Shown: one piece after another, positions 17,542 to 21,780 of the stretch | Layout: every line of letters starts with the position of its first letter | Position numbering within the stretch: the first letter of the stretch is position 1 | Made by a program: the position numbers and the translations under genes | The notes under the pieces: model-generated | Seen by the model: only the letters and a program-made list of their open reading frames with translations | Told to the model about the DNA's origin: nothing | Database searches by the model: none | NCBI RefSeq assembly: GCF_044324785.1 | Contig: NZ_CP172127.1 | Length of the DNA: 64,000 bases | From: Escherichia coli | GTDB lineage: Bacteria; Pseudomonadota; Gammaproteobacteria; Enterobacterales; Enterobacteriaceae | Direction: 5' to 3' (one strand)

Positions 17542-18336
17542 TCATAATAATTGCGGCGGCGCAAAGCGACGGTTGTTTAAGACGGGCAGTTGCGCGCGCA
17601 CCTGACGCACACGTTCAGGCGTCACTTCCGCCATAATGAGTGCAGGCATTTCTGACGCTGCCGCAATGGTGACGCCAAAGGGATCTATAATTCGGCTTTG
17701 CCCGATATTTTTGTTCCCGCACTCCCCCGCCGCCACCATATAACAGGTGGTATCCAGCGCACGAGCGGCAAGCAACGTTGACCAGTGATGCTCTTTGAGC
17801 GGCCCACGAACCCAGGCGGCAGGAAGTACCAGGATTTCAGCTCCCTGTAATGCCTGTGCCAGCGCCAGCTCTGGAAAGCGTAAGTCATAACAGGTCATCA
17901 GACCGACCTTCATCCCTTCCACCTCCAGTAACGGAGCTATTTCATTACCAGCATCAACATGGCGTGATTCCTGAATGGCAAATGCATCATAGAGATGCAG
18001 TTTGGCATAACGGGCGACGATGTTTCCTGCCTGTAGCGCCACCAGCATATTCCATGCGCGCCCCGGCGTTGAAGGAACATGAATCGTCAGAATTGTCGTC
18101 ATCATGTTACGTTTACTTTCTCGCCGTAAACGTCCGAGGAATTCGCCTTCCAGCAGCTGTGCTGATTTAACCGATAGATCTGCATCATGATCATCACGCG
18201 CCAACAATGCTTCCGGCAGGACAAACAGCGAAACGTCGTTTTCCGCCGCCTGCGCCATCAACGAGGCACAAATCTCAGCGTTCTTTTCCCACACAGATGT
18301 AACAGCAAACTGTCCTGCGGCAACCAGCATTGCCAC
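17542..18336 (-). CDS. ybeM: C-N hydrolase (nitrilase superfamily) YbeM, intact
   Basis: 264 aa uninterrupted ORF; start may be the second Met. Confidence 0.85.
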
Positions 18337-18425: not shown

Positions 18426-18809
18426 GTGTTACAACTTCTTTTAGCAGTTTTTATTGGCGGTGGTACGGGAAGCGTGGCGAGATGGCTGTTAAGTATGCGA
18501 TTTAACCCGCTGCATCAAGCGATTCCGCTGGGGACGCTGGCTGCAAACCTGATTGGGGCATTCATCATAGGAATGGGATTCGCCTGGTTTAGCAGGATGA
18601 CGAACATTGATCCAGTGTGGAAAGTATTAATCACCACCGGATTTTGTGGCGGTCTAACAACCTTCTCAACATTTTCGGCAGAAGTGGTGTTTTTGTTACA
18701 AGAGGGCCGCTTTGGCTGGGCGTTACTGAACGTTTTCGTCAACCTTTTGGGGTCTTTTGCCATGACCGCACTGGCTTTCTGGCTGTTTTCCGCCTCAACC
18801 GCACACTAA
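18426..18809 (+). CDS. crcB: Fluoride ion channel CrcB/FluC
   Basis: 127 aa, four TM helices; GTG start. Confidence 0.92.
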
Positions 18810-18813
18810 AGAC

Positions 18814-18845
18814 CAAAAAAACCCGCTGATTAAGCGGGTTTTGAA
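18814..18845. terminator. Bidirectional intrinsic terminator between crcB and cspE
   Basis: AAAAAAACCCGC-TGATTAA-GCGGGTTTTG. Confidence 0.75.
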
Positions 18846-18861
18846 TTCTTGCTGACGTATC

Positions 18862-19071
18862 TTACAGAGCGATTACGTTTGCAGCAGAAGGGCCTTTGGC
18901 ACCGTTAGTGATTTCGAACTCTACGCGCTGACCTTCAGCAAGAGTTTTAAAACCATTAGTCTGGATTGCAGAGAAGTGTACGAACACGTCTTTGCTGCCG
19001 TCTTCCGGAGTAATGAAACCGAATCCTTTGGACTCATTAAACCACTTAACGTTACCTTTAATCTTAGACAT
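18862..19071 (-). CDS. cspE: Cold-shock-domain protein CspE
   Basis: ORF track 18862..19155 trimmed to [12 protein letters not shown] (69 aa); RNP1 motif KGFGFI. Confidence 0.95.
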
Positions 19072-19245
19072 CAAAATTACCTTTACATGAAAAATAGACA
19101 CAAATGCTGTGTCGGTTACCAGTACACCAATTGTGGTACGCTTTGTCCAGTGCAACTTTACTAAAAAGTGATAAAAGTCGCGTTATTTTTGATGTTACTT
19201 ATTTTAGTTATTGATTTTAAAGAAGTTACTAAAACTTCATTTGTC

Positions 19246-19806
19246 TCAAAACTGAAAGCGCATCCAGGCAAAGTACACATTGCCATTGTTGTAGGTACCC
19301 GGAATGTAGGTCATCTGAAAAGTCACTGGACCATAACCCACAGAGGCCAATGGCAGTAGAACCGGGAGAGGGATGTAATTCCAGTTATCGCGTGCCGTTA
19401 CGCCAGCGGTGAATCCCAGACCTAAATGAAAATTTTCATCCGCCAGCGGTCGCCAGGTACTTTCCCATCCGTATCCGGCAATCGGTTCCCATTTGTTCCA
19501 CGAGTCCTTAAATGCCATGGCATACAGGCCATGCCAGTTTCCTTTTTCATCCCAACGCGACAGGCCAAAACCGCCACCCCACGGTCGCTCGTTATAGCGA
19601 TCGGTTTTTTCTTTGTCGTAAGCGAAACGTGCATGCCAGGTGATGGCAGGAATATATAAATCATAATGTTCAGGCTGTTGCCAGGTTTGTGCAATATTTT
19701 CTCTAAACGTTGTCATCCACTCATCTGCGTTAGCAAAAACTTTACCAACGCTGATTAACTGAATAAAAACAAAGGAAAAGATAGCGACATATTTACTCAC
19801 GTTCAT
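19246..19806 (-). CDS. pagP: Lipid A palmitoyltransferase PagP (outer-membrane beta-barrel)
   Basis: ORF track 194 aa trimmed to MNVSKY (186 aa); signal peptide and aromatic-rich barrel. Confidence 0.93.
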
Positions 19807-20291
19807 TTGTGACCATAAAACATTTATCAAAAATCTACTACCAGCATAGCAAAGCTACAATTAACATAACCTTAATAGCCCCAACATAAAGAATAATCTG
19901 AATAGCTGCTCTATTTATTTCCGCTTGTTTAAGTTAAATATTTCCGCGCATCGATTAAAGATGATGCGTCGTTTTCTGCGATGGGAATAGTCAAAAAAGA
20001 AAAACCAAGTCTTTTTTGATGACAAAATGCAATCAAGGAAAAATTATTTTATTTTTTAACGAGATACAACAATCATCTTAACGAAGTATATAATATATAT
20101 CGTCAACCCATGCTCATGATAGATTATTTTATGAGCACGCAACCGCAGCTAACACCATTGCAATTAACAAATTTGCATCAATCCTCCATCAATTTACACA
20201 CATTATTATGTGATAATTGCCAACCGCTAAATATGCGTTTTGTTATCTATGTATAAAAACAGCAACTTCAATGTCTTAATGGCAGTTTTTC

Positions 20292-20305
20292 TTGATTTTA
20301 ATCAG
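20292..20305. promoter_or_regulatory. Candidate FNR half-site pair (TTGAT-N4-ATCAG) upstream of dcuC
   Basis: Matches TTGAT-N4-ATCAA at 9 of 10 positions, about 90 bp upstream of the dcuC ATG; dcuC is anaerobically induced. Confidence 0.35.
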
Positions 20306-20394
20306 CATTCATCGCCAATTTATTGGGCATATTTTTTCCTTAAGCTTTAGGAATTTTTTATTATTTACTTTGGGGCCTGGAGACAGGAAAAATT

Positions 20395-21780
20395 ATGCTG
20401 ACATTCATTGAACTCCTTATTGGGGTTGTGGTTATTGTGGGTGTAGCTCGCTACATCATTAAAGGGTATTCCGCCACTGGCGTGTTATTTGTCGGTGGCC
20501 TGTTATTGCTGATTATCAGTGCCATTATGGGGCACAAAGTGTTACCGTCCAGCCAGGCTTCAACAGGCTACAGCGCCACGGATATCGTTGAATACGTTAA
20601 AATATTGCTAATGAGCCGCGGCGGCGACCTCGGCATGATGATTATGATGCTGTGTGGCTTTGCCGCTTACATGACCCATATCGGCGCGAATGATATGGTG
20701 GTCAAGCTGGCGTCAAAACCATTGCAGTATATTAACTCCCCTTACCTGCTGATGATTGCCGCCTATTTTGTCGCCTGTCTGATGTCTCTGGCCGTCTCTT
20801 CCGCGACCGGTCTGGGTGTTTTGCTGATGGCAACCCTGTTTCCGGTGATGGTAAACGTTGGTATCAGCCGTGGTGCAGCTGCTGCTATTTGTGCCTCCCC
20901 GGCGGCGATTATTCTCGCACCGACTTCAGGGGATGTGGTGCTGGCGGCGCAGGCTTCCGAAATGTCGCTGATTGACTTCGCCTTCAAAACGACGCTGCCT
21001 ATCTCAATTGCTGCAATTATCGGCATGGCGATCGCCCACTTCTTCTGGCAACGTTATCTGGATAAAAAAGAGCACATCTCTCATGAAATGTTAGATGTCA
21101 GTGAAATCACCACCACTGCTCCTGCGTTTTATGCCATTTTGCCGTTCACGCCGATCATCGGAGTGCTGATTTTTGACGGCAAATGGGGTCCGCAATTACA
21201 CATCATCACTATTCTGGTGATTTGTATGCTGATTGCCTCCATTCTGGAGTTCATCCGCAGCTTTAATACCCAGAAAGTTTTCTCTGGTCTGGAAGTGGCT
21301 TATCGCGGGATGGCAGATGCATTTGCAAACGTGGTGATGCTGCTGGTTGCCGCTGGGGTATTCGCTCAGGGGCTTAGCACCATCGGCTTTATTCAAAGTC
21401 TGATTTCTATCGCTACCTCGTTTGGTTCGGCGAGCATCATCCTGATGCTGGTATTGGTGATCCTGACAATGCTGGCGGCAGTCACGACCGGTTCAGGCAA
21501 TGCGCCGTTTTATGCGTTTGTTGAGATGATCCCGAAACTGGCGCACTCTTCCGGCATTAACCCGGCGTATTTGACTATCCCAATGCTGCAGGCGTCAAAC
21601 CTCGGCCGTACCCTGTCACCCGTTTCTGGCGTAGTCGTTGCGGTTGCCGGGATGGCGAAAATCTCACCATTTGAAGTCGTAAAACGCACCTCGGTGCCGG
21701 TGCTTGTTGGGCTGGTGATTGTTATCGTTGCTACAGAGCTGATGGTGCCAGGAACGGCAGCCGCGGTCACAGGCAAGTAA
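20395..21780 (+). CDS. dcuC: Anaerobic C4-dicarboxylate transporter DcuC
   Basis: 461 aa polytopic membrane protein. Confidence 0.95.
   Translation: MLTFIELLIGVVVIVGVARYIIKGYSATGVLFVGGLLLLIISAIMGHKVLPSSQASTGYSATDIVEYVKILLMSRGGDLGMMIMMLCGFAAYMTHIGANDMVVKLASKPLQYINSPYLLMIAAYFVACLMSLAVSSATGLGVLLMATLFPVMVNVGISRGAAAAICASPAAIILAPTSGDVVLAAQASEMSLIDFAFKTTLPISIAAIIGMAIAHFFWQRYLDKKEHISHEMLDVSEITTTAPAFYAILPFTPIIGVLIFDGKWGPQLHIITILVICMLIASILEFIRSFNTQKVFSGLEVAYRGMADAFANVVMLLVAAGVFAQGLSTIGFIQSLISIATSFGSASIILMLVLVILTMLAAVTTGSGNAPFYAFVEMIPKLAHSSGINPAYLTIPMLQASNLGRTLSPVSGVVVAVAGMAKISPFEVVKRTSVPVLVGLVIVIVATELMVPGTAAAVTGK

Follow-up and report, generated by a model that had tools for sequence, protein, structure and literature searches.

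The pagP-dcuC locus

The window considered here is the whole stretch of Escherichia coli DNA that was analysed, 64,000 nucleotides in length, and within it two divergent genes are separated by an AT-rich intergenic gap. Both coding sequences appear in the open reading frame list and in the annotation of K-12 and of E. coli N3:

19246-19806, minus strand: pagP (crcA), encoding the lipid A palmitoyltransferase.
20395-21780, plus strand: dcuC, encoding the anaerobic C4-dicarboxylate transporter.

The segment 19700-20500 is 99.8% identical to the corresponding DNA of E. coli N3 and 98.3% identical to that of K-12, relative to which the window is reversed, and it is present in 5,419 of the 5,426 complete E. 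coli genomes; approximately 44 of those 5,419 are without an intact copy of the region. The gap itself (19807-20394) is 588 bp long, likewise 588 bp in K-12, and the two versions align without indels, so that K-12 coordinates transfer exactly, with position x of U00096.2 corresponding to window position 20395-(x-655,191). The sequence anatomy and conservation pattern of the gap are described below together with published FNR, sigma-70 and H-NS occupancy and the published expression effects of hns, slyA, fnr and arcA, mapped onto the window. No feature within the gap is annotated in K-12 RefSeq or by PGAP in strain N3. The PGAP locus tags of N3 skip from RS21410 (pagP) to RS21420 (dcuC), which suggests that a feature in the gap was once called and later withdrawn. 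In E. coli Eco_23-3571 (L088 3603-4583), an IS5-like ISKpn26 element replaces the whole gap together with the 5' end of dcuC (window ~19807-20480).

Compositionally, the gap is distinctive. It was originally predicted to be an unusually long region of 560 bp, with very low GC content and multiple A/T tracts; the length is indeed unusual locally, the figure itself has to be corrected to 588 bp, and both statements on composition are borne out. The syntenic 50 kb of K-12 contains 27 intergenic gaps that measure 30 bp or more; this one is the longest, and the runner-up has 378 bp. Its GC content is 0.316 (31.6%), compared with 0.517 in the surrounding 50 kb, and it forms the lowest-GC stretch of the window, with all 15 of the 15 lowest-GC frames of 588 bp overlapping it. 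Runs of A or T of at least 4 nt number 18 (30.6 per kb, compared with 9.6 per kb elsewhere), whereas composition-matched shuffles of the gap yielded 10.5 +/- 2.8 such runs and reached 18 or more in 8 of 1000 cases. The gap measures 558-588 bp in Escherichia, 403-465 bp in Citrobacter and Salmonella, and ~290 bp in Klebsiella, and it is AT-rich in all of them.

The neighbourhood on the pagP side includes an Rfam match to RF01766 (cspA thermoregulator; 18814-19256, minus strand, 123.6 bits), which covers the 5' UTR and gene of cspE just downstream of pagP; the sigma-70 ChIP-seq peak at the cspE promoter is ~20 times higher than the pagP peak. Beyond it, a ybeM homologue (17542-18336, minus strand) is an intact open reading frame of 264 codons, annotated as a deaminated glutathione amidase in N3 and as a pseudogene in K-12.

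The dcuC end: FNR site and promoter

The part of the gap adjoining dcuC contains the following elements:

20151-20291, no strand assigned: block of moderate conservation on the upstream side of the dcuC promoter, including AATTAACAAATTTGCATCAAT (20163-20183).
20292-20305, plus strand: FNR binding site TTGATtttaATCAG (sequence, conservation and published ChIP peaks).
20328-20333, plus strand: dcuC -10 hexamer CATATT (conserved block and sigma-70 peak).
20385-20397, plus strand: dcuC Shine-Dalgarno sequence (AGGA) and ATG start (sequence, conserved in the alignment).

The site TTGATtttaATCAG, put forward originally as a candidate for FNR binding, fits the FNR consensus TTGAT-N4-ATCAA, an inverted repeat, at 9 of 10 positions. 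Matches to this consensus with at most one mismatch occur seven times in the whole window, against 2.5 expected by chance, so that the match at 20292-20305 is, taken by itself, weak evidence. Nevertheless, the site is real, since it is invariant across the Enterobacteriaceae and lies under a published in vivo peak. When the gap sequences of Escherichia, Citrobacter, Salmonella, Enterobacter, Lelliottia, Klebsiella and Raoultella are aligned, the FNR core TTGATTT..ATCAG proves essentially invariant across the 14 aligned genera and species, including the full range from Escherichia to Klebsiella. Moreover, Myers et al. (2013) reported an FNR PWM site, CTGATTAAAATCAA, at K-12 position 655,281 under both ChIP-seq and ChIP-chip peaks, and this sequence is the reverse complement of exactly window 20292-20305, which confirms the candidate as the very site identified in vivo. 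In the same study the dcuC FNR peak was also listed in an hns stpA double mutant, and dcuC was assigned to category 1, directly FNR-activated genes, with an aerobic/anaerobic expression ratio of 0.05.

Approximately 22 bp downstream of the FNR core, a GGCA(T/C)ATT block that provides the -10 hexamer is kept in all aligned species, and an anaerobic ChIP-seq peak for sigma-70 at K-12 655,235 (Myers et al. 2013) maps to window ~20351, at the dcuC promoter. The position of the -10 hexamer predicts a dcuC transcription start site (TSS) at ~20340 and, with it, an FNR site centred near -41.5, the spacing of class II activation. Myers et al. (2013) marked dcuC as 'TSS not in peak region', the TSS annotated at that time lying outside the FNR peak; this could be a separate start further upstream.

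The dcuC -10/start region (20327-20340) is complementary at 13 of 14 positions to 20385-20398, which contains the dcuC Shine-Dalgarno sequence and ATG. This pairing is only partly conserved in other genera, and it could sequester the dcuC ribosome-binding site only in transcripts that start upstream of the FNR promoter.

The block at 20151-20291, which precedes the FNR site, has 5% polymorphic columns in E. coli (95% invariant) and 73-74% identity to other Escherichia species, and its ATTAACA...ATCA core is common to Citrobacter, Enterobacter and Lelliottia. CATCAAT occurs twice in the block, at a distance of 11 bp, and the palindrome CACATtattATGTG is found there as well. A simple consensus scan for an ArcA box gave no good match in this block or in the gap as a whole.

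The pagP end: a PhoP-box-type promoter

The elements at the opposite end of the gap are read on the strand of pagP, and are listed here together with the hexamer that had previously been tentatively linked to control by PhoP:

19807-19836, minus strand: predicted pagP 5' UTR, ~30 nt, from the position of the -10 hexamer.
19843-19848, minus strand: pagP -10 hexamer TATGCT (alignment and sigma-70 peak).
19861-19877, minus strand: PhoP-box-type direct repeat TATTAA-ggtta-TGTTAA (conserved register; putative PhoP contact).
19926-19931, plus strand: TGTTTA, a strain-specific hexamer.

The suggestion that TGTTTA near 19925 might relate to PhoP control of pagP is not supported. The hexamer reads TGTTTA in this strain, TGTTCA in K-12 and strain 109, and AGTTCA in ST131 and A13, and its would-be partner half-site, AATATT, matches at 2 of 6 positions; because it varies among strains and is without a second half-site, TGTTTA is not a conserved PhoP element. 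A conserved promoter of the PhoP-box type is present instead ~50 bp nearer to pagP. When the 130 bp preceding pagP were scanned without bias at 80 Enterobacteriaceae loci, the arrangement (T/C)GTTAA-N5-(T/C)ATTnA-12nt-TAnnnT was recovered in the same register in most of these loci. In the window, the corresponding repeat at 19877-19861 has three mismatches to (T/G)GTTTA-N5-(T/G)GTTTA and is located 12 nt upstream of the -10 hexamer, in place of a -35 element. The aligned pagP -10 hexamer in other Enterobacteriaceae is TATAAT, TATTAT, TACAAT or TAAACT, lying 34-36 nt from the pagP ATG.

The -10 hexamer predicts that pagP transcription starts at ~19836 +/- 2. Secondary literature gives the crcA PhoP box three mismatches to the consensus and a distance of 32 bp from the TSS, with which the box at 19861-19877 and the predicted TSS agree. 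Furthermore, anaerobic sigma-70 ChIP-seq places a peak at K-12 655,742, that is at window ~19844, on the pagP -10 hexamer itself, and this peak is ten times higher anaerobically (Myers et al. 2013). An overlapping register of the box, TGTTAAttgtaGCTTTG at 19866-19850, is an alternative candidate that in E. coli likewise departs from the consensus at three positions; it is less conserved than 19877-19861.

Inside pagP, at 19732-19748 (minus strand), the sequence matches the sigma-54 motif TTGGTAAAGTTTTTGCT exactly; this match lies ~60-75 nt into the coding sequence, in sense orientation, and corresponds to the published intragenic sigma-54 ChIP-seq site IS06. An RpoN site within the gap itself was considered and rejected, as the gSELEX RpoN/NtrC peak labelled 'dcuC/pagP' probably derives from this intragenic site.

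The central spacer

Between the two promoter-containing modules lies the most variable part of the gap:

19878-20150, no strand assigned: central spacer, A/T-tract-rich and fast-evolving (alignments).

Among six E. coli strains, 21% of the alignment columns of this spacer of ~270 bp are polymorphic, compared with 4-8.5% in the flanking modules of the gap, and its divergence between E. coli phylogroups, at 12-13%, is several-fold above that of the flanking modules. Compared with E. whittamii and Escherichia sp. E1V33, the spacer is 46-47% identical and the flanking modules are 68-79% identical. The middle of the gap is unalignable between Escherichia species, and in Citrobacter, Salmonella and Klebsiella the spacer is largely missing. 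No conserved element was found in 19878-20150 in the alignments of E. coli and of the Enterobacteriaceae. The composition of the spacer, not its sequence, is under constraint, and evolution in the middle of the gap is too rapid for a conserved RNA or protein to be encoded there. The high diversity within E. coli may stem from relaxed constraint, recombination or diversifying selection. An exact 12-nt repeat, AGGAAAAATTAT, at 20036 and 20385 was examined along with other repeats and set aside, since they are not conserved in B2 strains and are compatible with chance in AT-rich DNA.

Occupancy by H-NS and the roles of SlyA and ArcA

The size and composition of the gap had been taken as typical of regulatory DNA bound by nucleoid proteins, and published data agree with this expectation. 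H-NS ChIP-chip regions at K-12 654,590-655,558 and 655,584-656,283 (Myers et al. 2013) map to window 20028-20996 and 19303-20002, respectively, covering the gap, pagP and the 5' part of dcuC, so that the H-NS region at pagP-dcuC extends over ~1.7 kb. The spacer was also flagged as H-NS-bound by gSELEX (Shimada et al. 2014). Deletion of hns raises pagP expression 18-fold, SlyA is required for induction of pagP in biofilm, and this biofilm induction is independent of PhoP (Chalabaev et al. 2014). At the FNR site, Table S6 of Myers et al. (2013) reports no nucleoid-protein enrichment, although the H-NS region list of the same study spans the site.

Simple motif scans contribute little to this picture. 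The high-affinity H-NS motif TCGATAAATT has three matches with two mismatches in the gap, and the window-wide count of 66, against 58.8 +/- 7.4, is at chance level. The SlyA consensus shows no enrichment in a simple scan of the gap, and three SlyA-like sites have been published. As for control shared by the two genes, both pagP and dcuC are up anaerobically (Myers et al. 2013), expression in an arcA mutant falls 4.1-fold for dcuC and 2.8-fold for pagP, and an ArcA PWM site has been reported in the gap, without ChIP signal. The spacer most likely serves as a platform for H-NS and as spacer DNA.

Transcription from within the gap

The original prediction also raised the possibility that the gap conceals a small RNA or a small open reading frame. 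Two back-to-back motifs in the spacer are relevant to transcription from the gap:

20019-20047, plus strand: sigma-70-like ATGACA-17-AATTAT, directed towards dcuC (own scan and motif of Shimada et al.).
20053-20081, minus strand: sigma-70-like TTAAGA-17-TAAAAA, directed towards pagP, back-to-back with the former (motif of Shimada et al.).

Both motifs were proposed by Shimada et al. (2014), who showed by gSELEX that the RpoD holoenzyme binds the spacer in vitro, and one of the two was recovered in our own scan. These motifs, at 20019-20047 (plus strand) and 20081-20053 (minus strand), might act as cryptic sigma-70 promoters that are normally silenced by H-NS and, once de-silenced, drive dcuC or pagP transcripts with long leaders, or else non-coding transcription by which the promoters at the two ends are modulated. 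This is rather unlikely on the present data. H-NS does cover the region, the formerly annotated dcuC TSS outside the FNR peak would accord with an upstream start, and the 13/14 complementarity to the dcuC Shine-Dalgarno sequence and ATG would matter only for a transcript initiated upstream; in addition, IS5 insertions in the gap have repeatedly been selected under kanamycin in the laboratory. However, among the peaks listed in the anaerobic sigma-70 ChIP-seq data there is none at 20019-20047 or 20053-20081, the promoter scan returned fewer promoter-like matches than shuffles (2 against 4.1), and the motifs of the spacer are not conserved in B2 strains. Cryptic promoters of this kind would complement, and not replace, the control of the two genes from the terminal promoters.

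A more specific proposal is that the middle of the gap (~19880-20290) yields a pagP-strand transcript specific to E. coli and Shigella. This transcript, either the predicted sRNA Ssr31 or a long leader of pagP initiated at a cryptic promoter, would normally be repressed by H-NS and, in biofilm or under aminoglycoside stress, would have a part in the expression of pagP that is independent of PhoP and controlled by H-NS and SlyA. Ssr31 is a 295-nt sRNA that a study of Shigella flexneri predicted for the pagP strand of this gap and found positive by RT-PCR. Such a lineage-specific regulatory transcript would bear on the escape of pagP from H-NS in biofilms and under antibiotic stress, but the evidence does not favour it and it is considered highly improbable. 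Cryptic promoters in AT-rich DNA covered by H-NS would account for the binding of RpoD and the RT-PCR signal of Ssr31 no less well than a functional RNA would.

It is extremely unlikely that the middle of the gap encodes Ssr31 as a pagP-strand sRNA in the full sense, with its own promoter, terminator and trans function. Beyond the RT-PCR result, this reading can draw on the sigma-70-like motifs proposed in the spacer by Shimada et al. and on two E. coli-specific hairpins:

19946-19969, plus strand: terminator-like hairpin (consensus scan; not conserved).
19991-20019: perfect 10-bp inverted repeat.

Nevertheless, RT-PCR does not reveal a discrete RNA, and read-through or a pagP leader could explain a pagP-strand signal. 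Strains 109, ST131 and A13 have a broken stem in the hairpin at 19946-69, which other Escherichia species lack altogether, and the inverted repeat at 19991-20019 is likewise disrupted elsewhere in E. coli. Since the changes seen among E. coli strains are non-compensatory, both of these, along with a stem at 20114-20138, were rejected as conserved RNA elements. The only terminator-like hairpins of the gap are on the plus strand, and they are not conserved. Some of the 40 frames of 100 nt that were tested have folding z-scores of -2.4 to -2.95, values that are unremarkable for 40 tests. Consensus folding with alifold gave no covariation support, the covariation terms ranging from about zero (-0.06, -0.20) to positive (0.22-0.94), and the consensus structure collapses once other Escherichia species are added. 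A scan of 18500-21000 against Rfam at permissive E-values found nothing credible in the gap, with no match better than E = 2, and K-12 Term-seq reports no 3' end or Rho region there. The divergence of the spacer, with 21% of columns polymorphic in E. coli and 46% identity to other Escherichia species, also argues against this reading. Among the anaerobic sigma-70 peaks listed, two lie in the gap, one at each end, and none in the middle, so that the evidence comes close to two divergent promoters and nothing further; the suggestion of a hidden sRNA accordingly finds no support in these data.

The longest open reading frame in the gap is the following:

20110-20256, plus strand: open reading frame of 48 codons (open reading frame list; not a conserved gene).

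That this or another small open reading frame in the gap is translated is almost certainly wrong, for although the frame is open in this strain and in K-12, it is without a Shine-Dalgarno sequence, is shifted by a 1-nt deletion in ST131 and A13 (a B2-type frameshift), has ACG in place of ATG in strain 109 and contains a 6-nt gap and many substitutions in other Escherichia species, while no open reading frame in the gap stays intact across strains, K-12 RefSeq, with its curated small proteins, annotates nothing there, and a gene-name search among the rows listed from one ribosome-profiling supplement, a weak check because its coordinates were mismatched, gave no match.

A composite divergent control region

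The gap between pagP and dcuC is very probably a composite divergent control region, in which each end carries one sigma-70 promoter and an AT-rich spacer coated by H-NS lies in between. At the dcuC end, FNR bound to TTGATtttaATCAG (20292-20305), ~41.5 bp above a start at ~20340, would switch on dcuC in a class II configuration when oxygen is lacking. At the pagP end, the PhoP-box-type repeat at 19877-19861 (minus strand) would replace the -35 element, 12 nt above TATGCT, and direct initiation at ~19836. H-NS coats the gap and the adjoining coding DNA and imposes strong silencing on pagP, which SlyA counteracts. The middle of ~270 bp would give rise to no sequence-specific product; we infer that it is kept AT-rich and A-tract-rich as an H-NS-binding spacer, while its sequence drifts fast.

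The region is already known and has already been studied, and it represents ordinary pagP-dcuC control DNA. It is a well-documented case in which a lipid A remodelling gene and an anaerobic transporter gene, unrelated to each other, have an H-NS-coated AT-rich gap in common. The analysis is useful in that it confirms the FNR site at base resolution and relocates the putative PhoP site away from TGTTTA to a deeply conserved box by pagP.

Comparison with known systems

The dcuC end resembles class II FNR promoters in its near-consensus TTGAT-N4-ATCAA site, its in vivo FNR peak and the 20-fold anaerobic induction of dcuC; the predicted position at -41.5 would fit this class. Nothing differs in kind, as this is the same published dcuC locus in another strain, with the TSS placed here by prediction.

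PhoP-box promoters of the PhoP/PhoQ regulon include phoP P1 and mgtA. With promoters of this type, among them the published crcA/pagP promoter, the pagP end shares a direct hexamer repeat of 11-bp periodicity that replaces the -35 element and lies 12 nt above the -10 hexamer. It differs in that the putative E. coli pagP box is degenerate, with three mismatches, and located away from TGTTTA, and in that pagP induction in biofilm is independent of PhoP.

The gap as a whole is similar to the envelope genes silenced by H-NS and counter-silenced by SlyA, as published for pagP itself, hlyE and the K5 capsule cluster. Common to these systems are AT-rich, A-tract-rich DNA and an extended H-NS region; deletion of hns de-represses pagP, and its induction in biofilm depends on SlyA. 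In contrast to a horizontally acquired island, the pagP-dcuC gap is core-genome DNA between conserved genes, and simple consensus scans of it recover neither the H-NS nor the SlyA motif.

IS5 inserts upstream of operons that are silenced by H-NS, such as bgl, flhDC and fucAO. The pagP-dcuC gap is alike in this respect, with repeated IS5 insertion under kanamycin selection and, in a natural isolate, replacement of the gap by an IS5-like element.
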